From: a bacterium
Lineage (GTDB): Bacteria; SM23-31
Direction of reading: 5' to 3'
Length of the DNA: 64,000 nucleotides
NCBI GenBank assembly: GCA_965221205.1
Contig: OZ244870.1
Location: 1,038,065 to 1,102,064 of the forward strand
In this document: piece by piece, positions 56 through 42,017 of the stretch
How the letters are laid out: each line of letters starts with the position of its first letter
Numbering within the stretch: position 1 is the stretch's first letter
The notes under the pieces: generated by a model
Databases searched by the model: none
What the model was told of the DNA's origin: nothing
What the model saw: the letters and a program-made list of their open reading frames with translations, nothing else
Made by a program: the position numbers and the translations under genes

Positions 56-2674
56 GTGTCGAACACATTACTGTTCAACGACCTCAAACATTCCGTAAGC
101 GGATGGCGGCGGTGCGGGTATCCTTGTGATGATTACCCGCTGATCGGCTCTATACTCGACTACCAAACGGAAAAGCACGAAGAAAAGCACGAAGACCGTT
201 CAACCCAGAAGTTTCTGCGCGATCCCCAGTTCCTTGCCCTTGAAGTGTACTGGTATGTCCGCATTGTGTTGAAAACCCCTCATATCATAGACCTTTACAA
301 ACATTACTACACGGAAGACAAAAAAGGCTTTTTTGATGCGATTGGCGTTTCCATACCAGGAGACGCTTTGGATTATGTGGAAATAGACGGGGTTATTAAA
401 AAAATCAAGGAAAATGAAGATTTTGTAAAAGAGAAGAAAATTCAAGCCCTGCATGAAGCCGCGAAACTGGGTTATCCAAGCTATATCCTCGCCCTGGCGA
501 TGGGCGCGGGTAAGACCGTGCTGATTGGCGCGATTGTTGCCATCGAATTCGCCATGTCCATGCGTTATCCCGAAGGCGAAATCAGGTTTATGAAAAATGC
601 CCTTGTCTTTGCTCCTGGCACAACCATTATCGAAAGCCTGCGGGAACTCAGCGGTATGCCCTACGAGAAGATTTTACCGCCCGACCTGAACCGTGATTTT
701 CTCGCCAATTTGAAGATTGAGTTTCCGGGCAAGGAAAAAGACATACAGGCACAGAGGGGCAGCAGTTATAACCTGATCGTCACGAATACCGAAAAAATCA
801 GTCTGCGCGCCAGACAGCGAAGCAACCAGGCACGACTGGCTTTTGAGCGCGAGGAAGTGCAGGCGAACCTGCTGCTCCAAAAAATCGCGAGTCTGCCGGG
901 TCTCGGAGTGTTTTCGGACGAAGCGCATCACACATACGGCAATACCTTCGACAAGTTAAAGCGAGTGCGGGAAACGATCAACTACATACACGATGAGCAG
1001 CCAATCGTTGCGGTCGTCAACACAACGGGAACGCCTTATTACAAGAAACAGCTCCTGAAAGAGGTGATTCTCTGGTATGGGCTTGGAGACGGCATCAGCG
1101 ATAACATTCTCAAAGACCTCAATAACGGGATTCACCAATACGACATCGGGGAGCAGTCGGAGCAGGGTGTGTTCCAGGATATCATCACGGTGTTTTTTAG
1201 CAGGTACGGTGATGTGTCGCTTCTCAATGGCGCGAAGGCGAAGATTGCTTTTTACTTCAAGACGCAGGAGCATCTGGAAACTTCCCGCGCCTTTATTGGA
1301 AGGGCAATGGCGGAGATGGGCGAGGATGTCTCCCAGATACTTGTGAACACGCAGAAATCCGGTGTCGCCGAGGTTGATGAATTCAGGAGACTGAACAATC
1401 CGACAAACCAGAAGCGGGTTATCCTGCTGATTGGCAAGGGTGTAGAAGGATGGAACTGTCCAAGCCTGTTTGCATGCGCCCTCATCAAGGAGCAGACGTC
1501 AAGCAGCAACTACGTTTTGCAGGCGGCGACACGATGTTTGCGGCAGGTTCCGGCAAACGCGCATTCGGCGAAGATATTCCTGGATTCCGGCAACGCAAAA
1601 ATTCTTGACAGGCAGCTGCAAGACAACTTCCGCACCGACCTTGACCGACTGAGTGCCGAAGCCGGGGAAAAGGAAACGGTCACCCTGCACATCCTCAAGA
1701 CGCAGCTCCCCACACTGGAAATCACCCGCACCGTGAAAAGAGCGGTCAGAAAGGGAACGCCATACGTGAACATTCACCTGGAAAAACCAACAGCGGAGGG
1801 CCCGCCCCCTATATTGCGCGGCATATTCACGCCCGATTTTAGCGGACCGGGAGAAATACTGATGCCCACGGGCGAAATGAAGGAGCTGCCCGCGGGAGAG
1901 CGCATTGTGGATTGTCATTCCGCCGCCTGGAAAATAGCCTCACGATACCATGTGCCGGTTATGCCGGTCCTTGAACAACTCAAACGTCTTTATCCAAACA
2001 GGGAAATGCCCCACGAGCATTTGTACGGGCTGTTCCGGCAGGTGGAAAAACAGGGAGCGAACTACGAAACAGTGGAAGACAAAATAACCGAAGCGATGGC
2101 ATTGATTCGGGTGCGGGATGAGAACGGAAAGGATAGTTTTGAAAAAGAAAACGATGTGTATGTTCACCGCTTGCGGGTGCTGAAACGGACTCATGACCGA
2201 ATGAAAGATAATGGTCTGTTGGCCGAAAGTGAGGAATATGAGGATAAGCACGATGTGAGTTTCCACTACACTCCCTACAACTTTGACAGCGGGCCTGAAC
2301 GTTCCTTCTTTCGGCAGATTTTGTCCGTGCTCAATGCAGCCCCCGATGATGTGGAGGCGTTTTTGTTCACGGGCGGACTCACAGACCAAAAGAAAACCGA
2401 CTTTCATTTTGAGTATCTCGGCGAGGACAAACGCTACCATCGCTATTTTCCCGATTTTGTGATTGTGAAGAAAACGGGCGAGTTTTATATTATCGAGATT
2501 AAGGCGGAGAGTGAGCGGGGAGATAAAACAGTGGAGGCAAAAGCCAAGGCAGTGGAACGGCTGCGAAATTTGCAGCCGGATAAATTCAAATATCAGGTGG
2601 TCTATACATCAACGACCATAACCCCACAGAACATCAAGCCCGTTACGGGCTGGATAAACGTACAGGAGAATTAA
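56..2674 (+). CDS. res: Type III restriction enzyme Res subunit (SF2 helicase with C-terminal nuclease-like region)
   Basis: 872 aa ORF with GTG start after in-frame stop at 35-37; Walker A-like ALAMGAGKT, DEAH-like VFSDEAHH, C-terminal PD-(D/E)xK-like FPDFVIV..EIKAE; homologous in architecture to the second Res at 33598-36411. Confidence 0.8.
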   Translation: MSNTLLFNDLKHSVSGWRRCGYPCDDYPLIGSILDYQTEKHEEKHEDRSTQKFLRDPQFLALEVYWYVRIVLKTPHIIDLYKHYYTEDKKGFFDAIGVSIPGDALDYVEIDGVIKKIKENEDFVKEKKIQALHEAAKLGYPSYILALAMGAGKTVLIGAIVAIEFAMSMRYPEGEIRFMKNALVFAPGTTIIESLRELSGMPYEKILPPDLNRDFLANLKIEFPGKEKDIQAQRGSSYNLIVTNTEKISLRARQRSNQARLAFEREEVQANLLLQKIASLPGLGVFSDEAHHTYGNTFDKLKRVRETINYIHDEQPIVAVVNTTGTPYYKKQLLKEVILWYGLGDGISDNILKDLNNGIHQYDIGEQSEQGVFQDIITVFFSRYGDVSLLNGAKAKIAFYFKTQEHLETSRAFIGRAMAEMGEDVSQILVNTQKSGVAEVDEFRRLNNPTNQKRVILLIGKGVEGWNCPSLFACALIKEQTSSSNYVLQAATRCLRQVPANAHSAKIFLDSGNAKILDRQLQDNFRTDLDRLSAEAGEKETVTLHILKTQLPTLEITRTVKRAVRKGTPYVNIHLEKPTAEGPPPILRGIFTPDFSGPGEILMPTGEMKELPAGERIVDCHSAAWKIASRYHVPVMPVLEQLKRLYPNREMPHEHLYGLFRQVEKQGANYETVEDKITEAMALIRVRDENGKDSFEKENDVYVHRLRVLKRTHDRMKDNGLLAESEEYEDKHDVSFHYTPYNFDSGPERSFFRQILSVLNAAPDDVEAFLFTGGLTDQKKTDFHFEYLGEDKRYHRYFPDFVIVKKTGEFYIIEIKAESERGDKTVEAKAKAVERLRNLQPDKFKYQVVYTSTTITPQNIKPVTGWINVQEN

Positions 2675-16540: not shown

Positions 16541-17494
16541 GTGAATCAAGAGATATTAGATATTAAACAAGACATATTTCAATCGCACTATGAAATAGTA
16601 TTAGGTGATACTCTTGGAAATTTGCGCAAGACAGAATCGGAAAAATTTAATTTAATTATTACTTCACCTCCATACAACATTGGGAAAAATTATGAAACAA
16701 AACAACCTATTGAAACTTACCTAAGTCAGCAAGAAGAAGTTATTGATGAATTGGTGAGAATAATTTCCAATCAAGGAAGTATATGTTGGCAAATTGGAAA
16801 TTATGTAAATAATGGTGAAGTTTTTCCATTGGATATATACTATTATCAAATTTTTAAAAAGCATAATTTATTTTTAAGAAATAGAATAATATGGCATTTT
16901 GGACATGGTTTACATGCTTCTAATAGATTTTCAGGAAGATATGAAACAATATTATGGTTTACAAAAAGCAATGATTATATTTTTAATTTAGACGAAGTTA
17001 GGGTGCCATCAAAATATCCGGGCAAAAAGCATTTTAAGGGTCCAAAAAAAGGAAAGTTTTCTGGTAATCCTAAAGGTAAAAATCCAACTGACATATGGGA
17101 GGTTTTACTGAGTGATTGGGAAAAGGAAATATGGAATATCCCAAATGTGAAATCTAATCATCCTGAAAAAACAATACATCCCTGCCAATTTCCAATAGAG
17201 TTAGTTGAAAGATTTATTTTAGCGCTTACTAATATAGGAGGTTGGATTCTTGATCCATATGCTGGTGTAGGTTCTTCAATTATTGCCGCTATAAAAAACA
17301 ATAGAAATGTAATTGGAATAGAAAAAGAAATTGATTATGTCGATATAGCAAAGGATAGAATAAAAAAACTGTTTGAAGGTAATTTAAAGCTCAGACCTAT
17401 GACAAAGCCTATCCACCAACCTTCACCAAAAGATAAAATTGCTAAAATTCCTGAAGATTGGCTGTTTGATAATAGAGAAGGTAATACTCAATGA
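16541..17494 (+). CDS. DNA methyltransferase, beta-class (N4-cytosine or N6-adenine)
   Basis: Motif IV TSPPY precedes motif I LDPYAGVGSS; GTG start; stop overlaps the next gene start (ATGA). Confidence 0.8.
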   Translation: MNQEILDIKQDIFQSHYEIVLGDTLGNLRKTESEKFNLIITSPPYNIGKNYETKQPIETYLSQQEEVIDELVRIISNQGSICWQIGNYVNNGEVFPLDIYYYQIFKKHNLFLRNRIIWHFGHGLHASNRFSGRYETILWFTKSNDYIFNLDEVRVPSKYPGKKHFKGPKKGKFSGNPKGKNPTDIWEVLLSDWEKEIWNIPNVKSNHPEKTIHPCQFPIELVERFILALTNIGGWILDPYAGVGSSIIAAIKNNRNVIGIEKEIDYVDIAKDRIKKLFEGNLKLRPMTKPIHQPSPKDKIAKIPEDWLFDNREGNTQ

Positions 17495-18105
17495 AAATTG
17501 CACAAAAATATTCACATTTAAATGGAGAAGAATACTTGATAGTTCACCATAATAAGTTATACTCTGAGATTAAGAGAATTATTCAAAGTATCGATGCGGA
17601 TAATTTTAAAACAAAAATTAGTAAAGAGAAAACTAAAAAAGGTTTAAAGCTTTATAGCCCAATAGGATTGAATAAAGTATTTGATAAGTTGTTTTCAGAG
17701 AACAATTGGAAGGAAAGTAGATATCAGTACTATATTACACTCAATAGGGAATTAATGGAAAAAAGCATTTTACTTCCGGCTAAAGAACAAAAGGATTTTT
17801 TAGTTTCATCAGGTGAAAAAGAGCCATTATTTTCATACAACCAAACAGATTTTGTAAAAGAAAAGATTGCAGTTGAGATGCAATTTGGTAAATACTCATT
17901 TGTTGCATATGATTTGTTCGTAAAGCATATGTTGTTTTACTCAGGTGGTATTATAAATCTAGGGATAGAAATATTACCTACTAAAAAGATGCAATCTCAA
18001 ATGTCGTCTGGAATTGCATATTTTGAAGGAGAGGTTTATAACGTTATGCGGCATGGAAGAAATAACCCACCAATTCCTTTGCTAATAATTGGTATTGAAC
18101 CATGA
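17491..18105 (+). CDS. Type II restriction endonuclease, BglII/BamHI family
   Basis: 204 aa; block VEMQFGKYSFVAYDLFVKHMLF closely parallels BglII TLVEVQFSNYPFLLNNTVRSELF (recalled from memory); 4 nt overlap with the methyltransferase. Confidence 0.65.
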   Translation: MKIAQKYSHLNGEEYLIVHHNKLYSEIKRIIQSIDADNFKTKISKEKTKKGLKLYSPIGLNKVFDKLFSENNWKESRYQYYITLNRELMEKSILLPAKEQKDFLVSSGEKEPLFSYNQTDFVKEKIAVEMQFGKYSFVAYDLFVKHMLFYSGGIINLGIEILPTKKMQSQMSSGIAYFEGEVYNVMRHGRNNPPIPLLIIGIEP

Positions 18106-20802: not shown

Positions 20803-20975
20803 AAGTAAATCTCCAAAAAGGCAAAACATCCAACTTTTTATAAAGTTGAAGTTATGAGCTGAAATATGCGGTTTATTAAACCGATGGTGTATTGTCTTCA
20901 TTCCTTTCTCTTATCCTCTGTGATGATGATCTCCTCAATCGACTTCGGGCCGGTGACGTCAATCGTTTGCTGCTT

Positions 20976-21200
20976 TCAATCCGGTATCAGCTTCTTTAAT
21001 ACAGTTGATATTGCCTTTGCATTGCCGCTCAGTGCCATTTTGACAATCTCTTCGTACACATTTTTGCCCGTGTCCTCTATCTCGCTACGTAATGTTGTAG
21101 CGTTCCGATCAATAAATCGTTTGAGAAAAAATCCTGAGAGGAATCCTCCAGCGAATGATAACCAGAGTGCGATTATTATACTTATTGTTGTAATAGCCAT
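20976..21200 (-). CDS. Small hypothetical membrane-anchored protein
   Basis: 74 aa with N-terminal hydrophobic helix (IIIALWLSFAGGFLSGFF); chosen over the overlapping plus-strand ORF 20866-21249 on protein-likeness only. Confidence 0.3.
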   Translation of the reverse strand: MAITTISIIIALWLSFAGGFLSGFFLKRFIDRNATTLRSEIEDTGKNVYEEIVKMALSGNAKAISTVLKKLIPD

Positions 21201-21894
21201 ATTTGGAATGATAATGAGTGTAAATGGTTATGCAAGTTGTTTTTATTGACTGCACAACTGTTAGCAAGGTTAAAACATTGTGGTATATGGAGTTACGAAG
21301 ATGATTCGGATTGTTGCTAACGCTTGCTGACGTTCTAACTTCTTATATTTGTATATAGTTATATAGTATATAGTATAGTATGTCAGCAACATTTAATATT
21401 TATATACCTCATACGCGAGAGTATTACTCTGTATGTGTGATTTTTGTATAAATATTTATTTAAATAATAATATATATCTATCTAATTTTGAAGACATGCT
21501 GACAAGCGGTTTTTTTGGGACTTAAACATTATAGTAAACAAATAATTTGAAGGTGTTAGCAAAGATGTTAGCAAACTGGCAAAAATGGGTGAAAAATGGG
21601 GGTTTGTCAGCAACTTTTTGATGTTTTTAATAAAAATTATTATTGTTAAAATTTGTAAGCAAATGGCAGGAAATGGAGTAAAAACTAAAAAGTTTTAAAA
21701 AATTTATTGCAAAAAAAGTTTAATAAATGTGCTACAATGTGTTCGATTGTGTTCAGGAGAGCTGAATTTGTCCGTTATAACAACGCGGTGAATTATTGAC
21801 GGATAAGTTCTATGGTGGTGCTCTGATTTTATAAAGAAATAGTTTGGAAATTTTTTTATTGTTGTTTATATTTAACATTCGAACCTCCTTTGAG

Positions 21895-21969
21895 TGGTGG
21901 AGCTGTGGGGAATTGAACCCCAGCCGTCGGGTGCAAACCCCGATGTCCTCACGCCATGAGAACGGCCCC
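21895..21969 (-). tRNA. tRNA-like element (75 nt) with canonical T-arm and Ala/tmRNA-type 3' end CAGCUCCACCA but atypical D-arm
   Basis: Minus strand reads GGGGCCGTTCTCATGGCGTGAGGACATCGGGGTTTGCACCCGACGGCTGGGGTTCAATTCCCCACAGCTCCACCA; T-stem TGGGG/CCCCA with loop TTCAATT; acceptor has a G3-U pair and one C-A mismatch; anticodon-like loop GTTTGCA; 4 nt D-to-anticodon linker is non-canonical. Confidence 0.35.
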
Positions 21970-22276
21970 GCTTCACAAAAGGTATGGGGAAGTGGAATGT
22001 GTATTGTCTGCTAACAATTGCGTCTCCACTTCCCTTTTATTTTTAGATCTCAGTCAGATTCTTCTATGTCTCCGGCACCTTTTACACCTTTTACCATGAA
22101 AATGACTGGAGGGTCTCTGCAGAAAGAAATAATTTTCTTGACAAAATAATCAAAAAATCCTACATTAAAATGGCACATGGGTACACCTTTTACCTTTCTT
22201 AAGGTGTTCTTATGTCGTTGATTATAAGAGTGGTGCAAGTCTTAGCCCGACAGTGCCACTCTTTTTTTCTAACGGA

Positions 22277-22675
22277 TTAATTTTCGATACTTCTTCGATA
22301 CTTCGTATTTAAGCCAGAACCAGTTTTGTTAACATATCCATTCAGAACAAGTTTCTGCAAAGGTGAATTTACAGAAGCAAGTAAATCTTTTGCTTTAGAT
22401 TTTAATAATCCTTTATCTTTCATTTTTTTAAGTTCATCTCTGAGAGCAGGAGGAGTCCAATCTACTTTGGAGTATTCATCAAATATGTTCTTTATAACAG
22501 CAGAAGTGCCTAATTGCACTCCAGGATCTCCCTTAACATTTGTTGAGGTCTCTTCTGTTGAGGTCTCTTCCAAATTTTCCGTTAAAATTTCTATTGCTTT
22601 TCGAATTGTCTCAGCTTTTTCATTTAACTTTTTCTCTTGTTGTTGCAAGGCTTCGATTATTTCATTATGGCTCAT
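22277..22675 (-). CDS. Hypothetical protein (coiled-coil N-terminus)
   Basis: 132 aa ORF; its ATG lies at the first bases of the 75 bp tandem repeat. Confidence 0.4.
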   Translation of the reverse strand: MSHNEIIEALQQQEKKLNEKAETIRKAIEILTENLEETSTEETSTNVKGDPGVQLGTSAVIKNIFDEYSKVDWTPPALRDELKKMKDKGLLKSKAKDLLASVNSPLQKLVLNGYVNKTGSGLNTKYRRSIEN

Positions 22676-22822
22676 GTCTTTTTGTCCTCTCTTGCTTTTC
22701 TACTTTGTAAATATAATCAATAACTTCTCCATGTCAAGAGTTTTCTTCATGTCTTTTTGTCTTCTCTTGCTTTTCTACTTTGTAAATATAATCAATAACT
22801 TCTCCATGTCAAGAGTTTTCTT
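22673..22822. repeat. Tandem direct duplication, 2 x 75 bp, one mismatch
   Basis: Copy 1 22673-22747 and copy 2 22748-22822 (CATGTCTTTTTGTC[C/T]TCTCTTGC..GAGTTTTCTT); each copy carries on the minus strand a TTGACA-16nt-TATATT promoter-like element and an ATG. Confidence 0.8.
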
Positions 22823-23993
22823 GTTATTTTTAAAACAATAATAAGTATGCTTTGTTTTTGCTATTTGGAATTAGGTGTGTGAATGATAGAAAAATAAAAG
22901 TGGATAAACTCCAGTAAAAATACTACGTATTATTGCTGCAGTCTTATCAATTGTTGTCGGTATTAGTCTTTTAGCTAATAATTCCAATCCAGTATATCCG
23001 CTAATCTGTGGAATATTATTCTTAATTTTTGCAATACCCCATATTAAAAAAATCAGTTTTGGGCAAGAATTAACATATATAACATCCCAATATTACTTTA
23101 CATAGCAATACTGGTGAAGAAGTATCATTTAAAGAAGAGTCAAAAATGAAGTTTTTAGTAGATAAGAAATTTGAAGAGGTGGACACCTGGTGCACAGGAA
23201 CAGTTACAGGATTTAAATCAAATTTAGGAGAAATAACTGAACAAGGTTATGATTTAGATGGTAAGTTACCCTTGCGATTGAATTATGATATAGTCCAGAG
23301 AAAAACGACCAGTAACTAAACCAACTGATTTTCTTAGCATTACTGTTATTTTCCCAGATAATAGAAAATGGAAAGGTTATAAAGGTAGATATGAAGGTAA
23401 AAATACAAAAATCAAACTTCATGAAATCCAGCCTCAACCCTCTAAAATGGATGAAAAAGATTGTTTAATATGGGAAATTGATAAACCTAAATTAAATCAC
23501 AAATATAAACTTGAATGGACATGGTATATTGTCATACAGTCTCTTGAATGCGTTTTTTTCGCCTCTCCCTGAGCGCTTCGATCAATAACATTTCAACTGT
23601 ATTTGAAAACATCCGGTTGTCACGTTCGGGTCGGCGTAGTGATTCGACTTCGTTATTTACTCGCTCTTCAAGACGGATTGTTCTGTGTATTTTAGTCATT
23701 GTACTCGCCTTCTATTCTTCACCAAATATGTATTGTACAGGTATGCCTACGGCACGAGTCGACATGCCAGGTTCAAAGCGTATTAATTTCACACTTTTAG
23801 TTCCATCGATGCGCAGCAGCACGTTCTTCCAGCCAGTATGCCAGGCTGTGTCCTTGAGCAGCTTCCGTTCGACCACCAGCTCTATATTCTTTACTCATCC
23901 GGTATAAAAGGGACTCCTAAATGTATCGTTCATAATGCCGGCGGAACACTCCTTCAACATTTTAAAAAAGTCGCTCTCTATACAATTATTGTA

Positions 23994-24610
23994 TTATTCA
24001 CCCTCTTCATATACCGGTGGAGGTGTGAAAAACAGGTGGCACTGGAAGCAGTCTTTCTTATCCTCGTCTTCCACATCGGTCAATGTTTTATTAAAGCGAG
24101 GATTAAACTGACCGTTATGGCAGACACCGCAGTCATTAAACATAAAAGGCCAATTGGTTTTATATTTGCCGACAAATTCGGGATCACCGTGTGTGATTCC
24201 GCGATGGTATTCAACACATTCGATTTTTTCGCGCTCGACATGGGTCCGATGTGCCATGATGAGTCCTTGTCCCTTAAGAGTATTATCAGGTAGATCGTAC
24301 CAGCCCATTTCATTAAAATAAAGAATGGAGTTGTGGCAGCCCATACAGTTTTCCGTAGAAATCGGAAGCGGTTCCTCGTGGGGACTCAGTTCGTTACCTC
24401 GGATAATTGCCACCATAAAGGTCGTGTACTCCCATAACCTGCGTCTTGAGTGCGCCTTTGATTCCCGGTTCGATATGACCAGTCTACACAGTTGATGTTT
24501 TGATGGGTTCCTTTTGCCCAGGTTACTTTCTGATCAACATGGCATGAACTGCAGACCATATTTGTTTTAAAAAATATTTTTTTGCAGGAATTTTCATGGT
24601 CTTGCTGCAC
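23994..24610 (-). pseudogene. Multiheme cytochrome c (NapC/NirT/NrfH-like), frameshifted
   Basis: Heme motifs CSSCH, CMGCH, CGVCH, CFQCH split across ORFs 24386-24610 and 23994-24416; a third frame restores the expected CVDCH at the junction. Confidence 0.5.
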
Positions 24611-24705
24611 CTGTATATAATTGGGGGAAAGCAGGATCAGTACCTTCTCCCAATTAAAGAGTGTTTTGAGTCGACCGACTCAAGCAAAATACCTGAATTG
24701 CCGTT

Positions 24706-25415
24706 TTATTGAGCGTCGATCAATTCATCGAGTTTCTTCTCGAGACCAATCGGACCGGACCATGGCTGAAAGAGTGCCGCTTTTCCTTCTCTGTCGATGA
24801 GGAGCATGCTGTTCGGAGCACCGCCTCCCAGCGTATTCTGGAAGGTTGTCCTTTGCAAAACCGTCAATGATAATCGGGCGTTTCAGGCCGTGATCCTCAA
24901 CAAGAATCTTGGCATAATTGACCCGGTCATCGACTGTTTTGGTCTGTTTCCGGTCTGAAAAGTCGTAACTCCGCATCTTCTCTCCGGTATGAGGCTCCTG
25001 TGTGTAAACTGTATAGAACTCGACATCTTTATCCTTGTATTTTTCGTACAGAGCATCCATATCAGGTATTTTCCCTAAGTAGAGCGGTTAAGTACAGGCT
25101 CCCATCTCGAGAACGAGGATTTTTCCCCGTTTGTCTGAAAGCTTGAAACTATCACCCTCATACGTTATGCACTCAAAATCTCCGATAACAGAACCGTTAT
25201 CAGGCCCTTTCCAGAAACTCCAGTCGGCTTGCATCCGCTGTCTCATATTTTTGCGCTGACCCAATATCAAAGACGGTCATAGTCCATACTGCACACAAGA
25301 AGCTGATAATGAGTAGTTTTCTTATATCTGACCTCCTGATTACAGATTGGTGGATTGTTACTAATGAATAAAAATAAAATTTATTGTAATAGTTACAAAC
25401 ATTTTTCTTATACAA
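24706..25415 (-). pseudogene. Thioredoxin-fold redoxin (TlpA-like), disrupted by in-frame TAA and frameshifts
   Basis: Pieces 25200-25415 (signal-peptide-like LLIISFLCAVW), 25088-25270 (..KRGKILVLEMGACT then TAA) and 24725-25060 in the same frame, plus a frame-shifted C-terminus ending ..LDELIDAQ at 24706. Confidence 0.5.
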
Positions 25416-40172: not shown

Positions 40173-40490
40173 TCAACTTTTGAGGGCACGGTCAGCATCA
40201 AGGTTTGTTATTTTTTTCATACGTCCACTCTCATCAAAGAATTTTCCAATATCATACGTAAGTGAGTTTTTCATTACCTTCAATACATCATCAGCCTGAA
40301 GTTCAACTCGTTCTTTTCGTTCCTCCGGAGCATTCGAAATGAAAGTTTGAATCAGAGATTTTCTCAGGTTTTCATAATCTATTTCACAAGAAGTTTTTTG
40401 CTATACCGAGAAGGCACGGCCGCTGCAGATGCATTAAGATCAACAAGACACTCTTTCACATTCACACACTGGACAATATACGTAGAATAA
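40173..40490 (-). pseudogene. Phage terminase small subunit (TerS-like) remnant, frameshifted
   Basis: Minus-strand frames read ..LVDLNASAAAVPSRYSKK then TSCEIDYENLRK..NAPEERKERVELQADDVLKVM..; frame switch at a T6 run (plus 40394-40399). Confidence 0.4.
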
Positions 40491-40595
40491 TTAAGTAAAT
40501 GAGGAAAATCAAGTAATTTATATTAATGTTGTATAGAGGGTTTATAATATTACTTAATTAAGTCAATGGTACTTAATTATTTGTTTAGATAAGTT

Positions 40596-42017
40596 CTAAA
40601 TCTTTCCACATATTTTCCACATATATTTATTATCTGTTTTGGGTAATGGTTTTTCATATCCTCTTTCCTGCAGCAATTTGTTGAGTGTTCTTTTTGTCAC
40701 TGAGTACTCATTGTTTTCATCACACCAATGTTTGTACTTTTCATAGACCATTTTAACCGGTGTCATTACACATGCAACATTTTTGCAACAGTCACTTAAA
40801 AAACTACCAATAACATCAGAATCTGAACGATATTCTTTTGTTGCATTTTCAACGGATGCTGGAATTATCACCTTCCACATATATAATAATCCCGGAATCC
40901 AGTTATCGCCCAATTCAGGATTCCAGGCAGCTCATTTCTGAATATGTTGAGCAATTCTGATTTAGGTCTTCGATTATTTTTTCGGAATTCCAACGGTAAA
41001 CGGGAGCTTACGCATTCTACGCCAGAAACCCTCAGTCGGTTGCGTGTACCCGTGGTTCATCATTTCCAAACATCCACAATTTATGTACTGGCTTAAATTC
41101 GAAAGTATATCGTTCCAAATGTGCCATTTCTTTGAACTATGGTTGTACCGTATTTGGTCGCCGAAATTGAATGCAAGAAAATCAGCGCTCCAAGTGTCAG
41201 TTGGTGAAAACTTGTCAGAATCATTCGTGGGTTTCAACGGCCGACCATTTTTCTTATCTTCAGGTTCTGGCTTCGGCTTATCGGACGGTTTCCAGAATGG
41301 AGTATCTCTGACGAGTTCGGTCAGCTGGTCTTTGGTATCACCTGCTTTTATCCAATCTGTGATGTCCTGCTTCGGCTGGCAGGTCCGGGAGTCTCAAAAT
41401 TATTATGTCTGCGGCAGATCTATGAAGTTTTAAGGCGATATCTTCGGAACGCAATCGTCCAGGGTCATCGTTATCCGGAATAATAACAACGTTAGCTTTA
41501 TGCAGCCAGGTAGAAAAGGCGGATTCCCAATTTCCGGCGCCACTGGAATTCGCCGCCGCGAACCCGAGAGATTCGAGCGTGTGTACATCCTTCTCGCCTT
41601 CGACTATGAATATAGACCTGCCTTTTTTAACAGCTTCCAATATCTGGGGGAGTCGGTATATAACATGCTTAACACCACGGATATTCCAGATCAACCCTCC
41701 GGGGCCATCAGGTTTTCTCAGTCTGAATTGTTTATCTTTCAGGCGGCACGCCTGGTACAATAAAGCGCCGTTTTCATCGATGTAATCATATGGTTTCTAT
41801 GATATTTGACTTTCTACATGTTCAGACCTATGGACTTAACTATATCTTCCGCAGGACAGCCTGCATGACAGCGCATGAGAACCTTACCTTCTTTGTCGGC
41901 AACGGATAAAGAGGGGGTCTTATCGTCATGGTATGGACAATGTGCTTGATAAGATCCGTTTGATTGTTGTTTTGGGTTTTTTAAGTGAGATAGTACATGG
42001 TCAATACACGCAGTCAT
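40596..42017 (-). pseudogene. Phage/plasmid DNA primase (CHC2 zinc finger + Toprim + C-terminal domain), fragmented
   Basis: Four ORF-track pieces: 41814-42017 (CPYHDDKTPSLSV..CHAGC), 41338-41760 (Toprim IFIVEGEKDV..VVIIPDNDDPG), 40974-41237 and 40596-40913, in frames 2/0/2/2. Confidence 0.6.

Follow-up and report, generated by a model that had tools for sequence, protein, structure and literature searches.

A repeat array at the head of a fused pseudogene

We analyzed an AT-rich intergenic region (GC 0.34) in a 64,000-nucleotide stretch of a bacterial chromosome (the window; contig OZ244870.1 of assembly GCA_965221205.1, positions 1,038,065 to 1,102,064). On the minus strand, the region precedes a 74-aa open reading frame (ORF), and on its other side lies a tRNA-like element. 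It carries a cluster of short repeats, which the original prediction had described as operator or iteron sites of an integrated element. Homologous copies of the region are present in a strain-level relative (L104) and on a 28-kb phage contig (L105). The features of the locus are given in Table 1.

Examining the repeats, we find that the true unit is a 9-mer, TGTNAGCAA (TTGCTNACA on the other, gene-sense strand), in which the fourth base is free to vary. The window has seven exact copies, six of them inside 21250-21700. With up to one mismatch, copies are seen at 21259(+), 21314(-), 21324(-), 21381(+), 21496(-), 21554(+), 21566(+), 21605(+), 21654(+), and 22008(-), and nine of these span 21259-21662. 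The motif had been reported earlier at five places. It is exact at 21259, 21554/21566, and 22008/22009, but the reversed copy at 21313 is CGTTAGCA, with one mismatch. The octamer TGTTAGCA occurs exactly four times in the window, at 21259(+), 21554(+), 21566(+), and 22009(-). Its sister octamer TGTCAGCA is also found four times in the window, three of them in the region, at 21381(+), 21497(-), and 21605(+); these three, CGTCAGCAA at 21324(-), and TGTAAGCAA at 21654(+) had not been listed before. The tandem copy (TGTTAGCAAAGATGTTAGCAAAC at 21554-21576), the second repeat present twice, and the TA microrepeat were all seen again. The statement that about 800 bp are devoid of credible ORFs holds for 21201-21894, where the phage homologue is also intergenic, but the segment so described also covers the tRNA-like element and a terminator-like hairpin.

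Table 1. Features of the repeat region and its surroundings, in window coordinates. Site distances are from the start of the 74-aa ORF or its counterpart.
Feature	Position	Strand	Description
Phage-derived fragment	20869..21764	-	Found by blastn and alignment; matches L105 1937-753 and the sister-strain relic L104 9301-10285
74-aa fusion pseudogene	20976..21200	-	N-terminus of an 80-aa membrane protein joined to the C-terminal part of DUF5681; premature stop
Site g	21259..21267	+	TGTTAGCAA (TTGCTAACA in gene sense), 67 nt before the ORF start; kept in L104 (-64) and L105 (-66)
Array f	21314..21332	-	Tandem CGTCAGCAA / CGTTAGCAA, 10-nt period, sense orientation, at -132/-122
TA microrepeat (TATAGT units)	21345..21380 (approx.)		About 45 bp between array f and site e; nearly invariant in the window, L104, and L105
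Site e	21381..21389	+	TGTCAGCAA; kept in the three-way alignment (column 492)
Site d	21496..21504	-	TGTCAGCAT; weak one-mismatch copy, poorly conserved
Array c	21554..21574	+	Tandem TGTTAGCAA-AGA-TGTTAGCAA, 12-nt period
Two phased A-tracts	21581..21600	+	AAAAATGGG twice (21581, 21592), 11 nt apart; kept in L105, not in L104
Site b	21605..21613	+	TGTCAGCAA
Site a	21654..21662	+	TGTAAGCAA
tmRNA-like minigene (tRNA-like domain only)	21895..21969	-	75 nt, G3:U70, encoded CCA
Terminator-like hairpin	21987..22044	+	GGGAAGTGGA...TCCACTTCCC, then TTTTATTTTT
Truncated insertion sequence copy	22096..22925	-	Inverted repeat, 132-aa accessory ORF (22277-22675), 75-bp tandem duplication (22672-22821); without transposase

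The region is AT-rich and belongs to a metagenome-assembled genome (MAG) with apparent frameshifts nearby, so that a chance cluster or an assembly artefact had to be weighed. Within the 451 bp of 21250-21700 lie six of the seven window copies of TGT.AGCAA and eight of the sixteen copies of GT.AGCAA. First-order Markov simulations (n = 5000) with the composition of this very segment gave a mean of 0.08 copies and a maximum of 2. In 95 other AT-rich windows of 451 bp (GC < 0.38), GT.AGCA occurred 0.15 times on average and never more than once. The eight to nine copies thus stand against an expectation of 0.1-0.2, and the enrichment check proposed by the original prediction disposes of the AT-rich background: the cluster is real and no effect of composition. 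Moreover, an independent short-read contig (L001/L002) carries the same sequence, and the sites are kept in L104 and L105. We therefore consider the probability of chance or artefact to be negligible. The Rfam scan of the whole window and of the region matched no family in the repeat region, and a literature search with the sequence strings returned primer coincidences only.

Read in gene sense toward the ORF, the order is a, b, array c, d, e, the TA microrepeat, array f in the opposite orientation, and g. The two oppositely oriented tandem arrays have a period of about one helical turn and, together with the single sites, flank the conserved TA-rich core, a candidate for an easily melted or bent segment. 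Counting both orientations, there are 9 sites in the window and 13 in L105. Array f has two copies in the window, two in L104, and four in L105 (10-12-bp period); array c has two in the window, two to three in L104, and four in L105 (11-12-bp period). Seven sites are conserved in position across the window, L104, and L105. The central base of the 9-mer takes all values among the three, and the eight fixed bases per site are invariant in 86% of columns, compared with 63% of the other intergenic columns (Fisher p = 1e-4). The repeat regions of the window and L104 differ by 23%, yet the sites are kept. Such a pattern of constraint is the signature of a protein-binding site selected in the phage lineage.

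The repeat region is a relic of a phage packaging operon

By blastn, window 20869-21730 aligns collinearly with L105 1937-753, with a nucleotide identity of about 75%. In the 11.6 kb of L105 that we examined, a GIY-YIG nuclease fragment and a 124-aa ORF are followed by a 660-bp gene-free AT-rich stretch, an 80-aa membrane protein, and a DUF5681 (PF18932) protein. Then come two small ORFs, a Terminase_3 large terminase, a 655-aa ORF that stands in the portal position and has no family match, and further virion genes, among them one for a SU10_adaptor-domain protein. The array of L105 (753-1348) immediately precedes these packaging genes, from the 80-aa gene through DUF5681 to the large terminase.

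In the window, the same genes are broken. The N-terminal 40 residues of the 74-aa ORF match the 80-aa membrane protein (P0003, encoded on L105, and P0004), and its C-terminal 33 residues match the 94-aa DUF5681 protein P0005 with 97% identity; the identities of the two halves to the separate proteins are 68-97%. The deletion that fused the two small genes is visible as a gap at columns 827-1086 of the alignment of the window, L104, and L105, and a stop codon then truncates the rest. The terminase genes are gone from the chromosomal relic. With a deletion joining the small genes and a stop codon cutting them short, the window fragment is a decayed relic. Together with the collinearity, this marks the region as the cis-acting head of a phage packaging operon stranded in a chromosome. 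About 0.9 kb of a temperate or virulent tailed-phage genome was left here. The earlier notion of an integrated element is thus correct in that the DNA is foreign and absent from L003, the closest sister species, but a fragment of this size with a fused and truncated pseudogene could not excise.

The strain-level relative L104 is 98.2% identical to the window over 10 kb of host genes, and in it the same relic adjoins RidA with DUF5681 intact. Its repeat region is 77% identical to that of the window, and it has neither the tRNA-like element nor the insertion sequence (IS) fragment. Comparing window 21075-21764 with L104 9898-9301, we noticed that identity is 77% in the relic and 98% in the host genes. 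The drop begins exactly at the deletion junction, and a single outer breakpoint is common to both genomes. This suggests that the relic may have been overwritten by recombination with a second, related phage. Beyond L104 and L105, no further relative of the phage module was found in a database of 5.8 billion proteins, in IMG/VR, or with a DNA pattern in the Joint Genome Institute (JGI) metagenomes. In the phage and plasmid nucleotide collections, the sole match was a fragment of an acetoacetate-CoA ligase gene at about 23850-23960.

DUF5681 occupies the position of a small terminase

To place the DUF5681 protein, we collected 80 IMG/VR loci with homologues and scanned the following ORF in 69 of them. 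It is a large terminase in about 60 (Terminase_6N in 39, Terminase_3 in 18, GpA in 3, and TerL_ATPase in 1), and DUF5681 therefore occupies the small-terminase slot. By position only, we regard it as a putative small terminase. Pfam gives no function for the family, PHROGs lists it under 'unknown function', and in the one publication that names it, it was detected in a virion proteome and listed as virion-associated, with unknown function. An AlphaFold model built with 114 homologues (predicted local distance difference test score, pLDDT, 80) shows three short helices and an N-terminal arm that is conserved and rich in Gly, Pro, and Arg; the model from a shallower alignment was poor.

The same motif stands before DUF5681 in a satellite-like element

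Two loci chosen for the IS described below, L083 and L085, hold a small integrative element with a tyrosine integrase, DUF5681, a D5_N/Pox_D5 primase-helicase, and an HTH_17 gene, the last also described as of the AlpA helix-turn-helix (HTH) type. The DUF5681 protein of L083 is 37% identical to that of the phage. Between the primase gene and DUF5681 of L083 sits TTGTTAGCAATTATGTTAGCAAG, and beyond the motif there is no nucleotide similarity between L083 and the window region. Taking the first ATG of the DUF5681 operon as reference, we located the sense tandem pair at -132/-122 in the window, -131/-119 in L104, -153 to -119 in L105, and -147/-135 in L083. A site in reverse orientation is found at about -57 to -67 in all four. 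The same motif, in the same geometry and with the same neighboring gene family, thus recurs in two unrelated sequence contexts.

We also observed a second decayed satellite-like element in the window, at 40176-41888 (-), which abuts a foreign block of 60% GC at 33-40 kb. Its Toprim/D5-type primase-helicase pseudogene (40653-41888) has lost about 245 aa through an internal deletion and carries frameshifts. Next, at 40486-40581, come four TAATTAAGTA repeats in both orientations, and then a Terminase_2 small-terminase fragment (30.7 bits). The layout is the same, with a different small terminase and a different repeat.

It is conceivable, though we consider it doubtful, that the TGTNAGCAA arrays are the specific packaging signal of the DUF5681 small-terminase family in KSB1/Calditrichia-like phages, and that the P4-like or PICI-like (phage-inducible chromosomal island) satellite of L083 carries the same signal at the same distance from DUF5681. 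If true, this would be packaging-signal mimicry between a phage and a satellite in an uncultured phylum, and DUF5681 would gain a function.

What the array may do

The reading that we favor, tentatively and at somewhat short of an even chance, is that the array is a terminase recognition region of the pac or cosB type that overlaps the operon promoter. The array would be the assembly platform of the packaging initiation complex of the phage: oligomeric small-terminase (DUF5681) subunits, docked on the phased repeats, would wrap or bend the DNA and bring the large terminase into place. The module is dead in this chromosome, with its downstream genes fused and truncated and its terminase genes lost. 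From position and conservation, we infer both the role of DUF5681 as the binder and the packaging function. Among the readings considered, this one has the best support, through the position at the operon head, the linkage to DUF5681 in phage and satellite, the change of repeat with terminase type, and the precedents of SPP1 and lambda. In L105, the array lies directly upstream of the operon of the putative small-terminase gene, and its predicted binding sites are repeated in both orientations, with phased A-tracts. The L105 contig starts 750 bp from the array and not within it.

Several observations weigh against packaging. No genome terminus or cleavage site was mapped. The DUF5681 protein has no sequence match in PDB, and its model no significant fold match there. 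Upstream of 73-80 distant DUF5681 homologues, neither TGTNAGCAA nor any repeated 8-mer is enriched, and any specificity would therefore be restricted to this lineage. The databases searched hold only three homologous copies and one analogue, all from metagenome assemblies. The pair in L083 also lies 165 bp 3′ of a D5-type primase-helicase gene, the classical place of a satellite origin. In SF6/SPP1, the repeats were found not to drive binding of the small terminase TerS (PMC4737164).

A less probable alternative is that the array is an operator or activator region of the packaging (late) operon, where a small phage regulator of the ribbon-helix-helix (RHH) or HTH type would bind the phased 9-mers cooperatively before the promoter and turn the operon on or off. 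The fixed geometry to the first ATG in four contexts, with the pair at about -120 to -150 and the single site at about -60, speaks for it, as does the nearly palindromic 8-mer core (seen in the TGTTAACA variants of L083 and L105), which is typical for dimeric repressor sites. By our own reading, TTGCAT is conserved about 40 nt before the ATG, and L105 alone has TATAAT 5 nt before it; L105 has no Shine-Dalgarno sequence, and the two features together suggest a leaderless transcript. However, matches to the sigma-70 consensus were not above those in shuffled sequence and were not conserved between the window and L105. In addition, 9-13 sites over 400-460 bp go far beyond the usual need of a promoter, no candidate regulator gene was identified beside the array, and the Pfam matches of the neighboring small ORFs are nil or below threshold. 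Replication is less probable still. Here the array would be an iteron origin of the P4 ori/crr type or of the Staphylococcus aureus pathogenicity island (SaPI)/PICI type, with a phage or satellite primase-helicase that binds the 9-mers of both orientations and melts the TA core. Opposite repeat sets indeed flank the conserved TA microrepeat, as expected of an AT-rich unwinding element; the other decayed primase gene of the window, like that of L083, is followed by a repeat cluster; and in IMG/VR, arrays stand beside replication genes, 10 bp after an AAA_25 protein in L209 and upstream of DnaB in L200/L201. Yet no replication gene adjoins the array in the window, in L104, or in the examined part of L105, where the neighbors are the GIY-YIG nuclease, the 124-aa ORF, and the packaging genes; such a neighbor is found only in L083. 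No DnaA box (TTATCCACA with up to 1 mismatch) occurs between 18925 and 22899, and such boxes are present in many, not all, iteron origins. A conserved distance and orientation to the start of a downstream ORF would also be unexpected for an origin.

Improbable, and more so than the preceding two, is that the repeats are arm-type integrase or excisionase sites of an attachment site, with the tmRNA-like element as core or target copy. Head-to-tail 9-mers with 10-12 bp spacing in two arrays do resemble the arm sites of lambda, L5, and P2 Cox, and a tmRNA-type 3′ end (21895-21930), a classic integration target, lies beside the cluster. The tyrosine integrase of L083 has an N-terminal arm-binding-type domain and lies 570 bp downstream, and in scans of viral contigs for the motif alone, tandem TGTTAGCAA adjoined the 3′ ends of integrase genes in L091/L102, L092, L095, and L199. 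Against this, two chromosomal copies and the phage contig all keep the cluster whole and collinear; it is hence not split by integration. A tblastn search with the L083 integrase against the window gave nothing better than E = 0.7, and there is no integrase among the called genes of the L104 locus or of the examined part of L105. At least 230 nt separate the tmRNA-like element from the closest site of the array, and neither L104 nor L105 has the element. The viral scans themselves also led us to reject TGTNAGCAA as a widespread viral motif: it gave 16 tandem pairs and 27 triple arrays in IMG/VR, but a scrambled 9-mer gave 22 triple arrays. The hits come from contigs of 20-72% GC; some abut integrase 3′ ends, and others lie upstream of terS-terL (L100, L189, and L196) or beside replication genes. 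Given the scrambled control, these hits sample generic phage tandem arrays, and we dropped the association with integrases. Since arrays occur alike in attachment, packaging, and replication contexts, function cannot be read from the architecture by itself. In the phage, the array stands at the head of the packaging operon, which makes packaging or operon control at least as likely as replication.

In summary, the general direction of the original prediction, protein-binding repeats of a mobile element, was right. The repeats are conserved in position in the phage contig and the sister strain, but the replication role is not well supported, with no replication gene beside the array in the window, L104, or the examined part of L105 and no DnaA boxes in the region, and packaging or operon control rather than replication is most probable. 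For annotation, the lesson is that a regulatory-looking AT-rich stretch was a dead prophage fragment, neither a host regulatory region nor an excisable element. If the array is a packaging site, a function open to testing could be assigned to PF18932, as a small terminase that recognizes a defined 9-bp sequence. The phage and the satellite, with their common packaging signal, would then also be the first such pair in a candidate phylum without cultured phages.

Features adjoining the array

The tRNA-like element beside the array is a tmRNA-like minigene, with a GGGGCCG acceptor 5′ strand, 36 nt, a T-arm, and CAGCUCC-ACCA. ARAGORN calls it tRNA-Gln, and the Rfam tmRNA model scores 33.6 bits, below the gathering threshold (47). 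Over its final 26 nt, the element matches the 3′ ends of three full tmRNA genes from metagenomes without a difference. An independent second mini version in L237 (about 1326-1396, minus strand) has an intrinsic terminator of its own and an acceptor stem of 7 perfect base pairs. The minigene may be what an internal deletion left of an ssrA attachment site, or it may represent a genuine class of small RNA. The link between repeats and tRNA-like element made by the original prediction was not supported, as both L104 and L105 carry the same array and lack the element; the minigene therefore appears to be a separate object outside the conserved repeat module. Beyond it, the loop of the terminator-like hairpin contains a stray copy of the motif, TGTTAGCAG at 22008-22016, which is probably outside the array.

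The closest genomes are MAGs labeled as an uncultured 'bacterium', and more distant relatives of the flanking peptidase are labeled KSB1 or Calditrichia. Compared with the sister species L003 (88-91% nucleotide identity), synteny extends through RidA as far as 20887 and is found again from 23991 on. The intervening 3.1 kb are specific to the window and low in GC, and they contain the repeat region, the tRNA-like element, the truncated IS, and a fragment of an acetoacetate-CoA ligase gene. From the translations, remnants of a toxin-antitoxin system also seem to be present: a 55-aa RHH antitoxin-like ORF (23532-23699) adjoins a toxin fragment. It looks like the antitoxin half of a decayed pair, about 2 kb from the array and beyond the IS fragment. 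At the same locus, L003 (16220-16640) has a tandem duplication of about 290 bp with the 3′ end of a lost acetoacetate-CoA ligase-like gene, which marks the site as a recurrent rearrangement hot spot.

The IS fragment is unrelated to the array. It shares 78% nucleotide identity with the left terminus of an IS found in L083-L087, in which the transposase (DDE_Tnp_1) comes next; that IS is about 2.45 kb long and has two genes (an accessory ORF of 126-132 aa, always placed at this left terminus, and DDE_Tnp_1) and terminal inverted repeats. No family could be assigned to the accessory protein, which forms only two clusters among the 5.8 billion proteins. In the window copy, the 75-bp tandem duplication covers the start codon of the accessory ORF. 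We rejected this 132-aa ORF as the cognate binder of the repeats: it is the accessory gene of the IS, and four of five homologue loci have no motif cluster. The exception, L083/L085, has only the tandem pair of the satellite, about 7.4 kb away.

Further downstream, genes at 23532-24620 and 24725-25300 look decayed, or frameshifted in the assembly. The product of the multihaem cytochrome c gene measures 140 aa in the window and 221 aa in L003, and by our reading of the translation, a thioredoxin-like ORF near 23532-25300 is broken. The apparent frameshifts at 23532-25300 could be homopolymer errors of long reads in the MAG. On the other side, an N6/N4 DNA methylase and a BglII-type restriction endonuclease are encoded at 16541-18105 (+), within a block of 31% GC. 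The content of L003 differs at this locus, and the endonuclease of L104 appears split.

Comparison with known systems

In P4 ori/crr, the type I iterons are TGTTCACC octamers bound by the alpha primase-helicase, and in SaPI/PICI origins two iteron sets flank an AT-rich region 3′ of the rep gene. The array resembles both in its 8-9-bp direct and inverted repeats around an AT-rich core, and the L083 pair follows a P4-alpha-like/D5 gene. Unlike them, it has no replication gene beside it in L105 or the window, and its geometry is fixed to the start of the downstream operon. The attP arm sites of the lambda family and the arrays of recombination directionality factors, such as X1-X2 of lambda Xis and the Cox boxes of P2, share with it the head-to-tail repeats of 9-11 bp at a spacing of one helical turn, arranged as two groups with 150-250 bp between them; in contrast to these, the cluster is unsplit in the chromosome, has no adjacent integrase, and appears to contain no core with identity to a target. 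In R1 parC, two sets of five 11-bp iterons flank the promoter, and the omega repressor binds heptad arrays; in both types, a small dimeric protein binds cooperatively. Phased short repeats of variable number and orientation around a promoter are common to these systems and the array, which differs from them in having no partition genes or RHH regulator beside it.

We find the closest likeness, in keeping with the favored packaging reading, in lambda cosB and SPP1 pac. The array differs from both in its 9-13 sites over 400-460 bp and in its 9-mers with a free central base. An 80-aa membrane-protein gene stands between the array and DUF5681, a putative small terminase without similarity to gpNu1 or G1P. 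Of the three R sites of lambda cosB, one is inverted (PMC4669245), and the spacing of the HTH motifs in TerS equals one DNA turn (PMC4737164). Like cosB (R3, R2, R1, and the integration host factor site) and pac (the direct repeats of boxes a, b, and c), the array combines short repeats in both orientations with a bent AT-rich segment, and, as in both, these repeats lie directly upstream of, or overlap, the small-terminase gene and its promoter (PMC4669245, PMC4737164).

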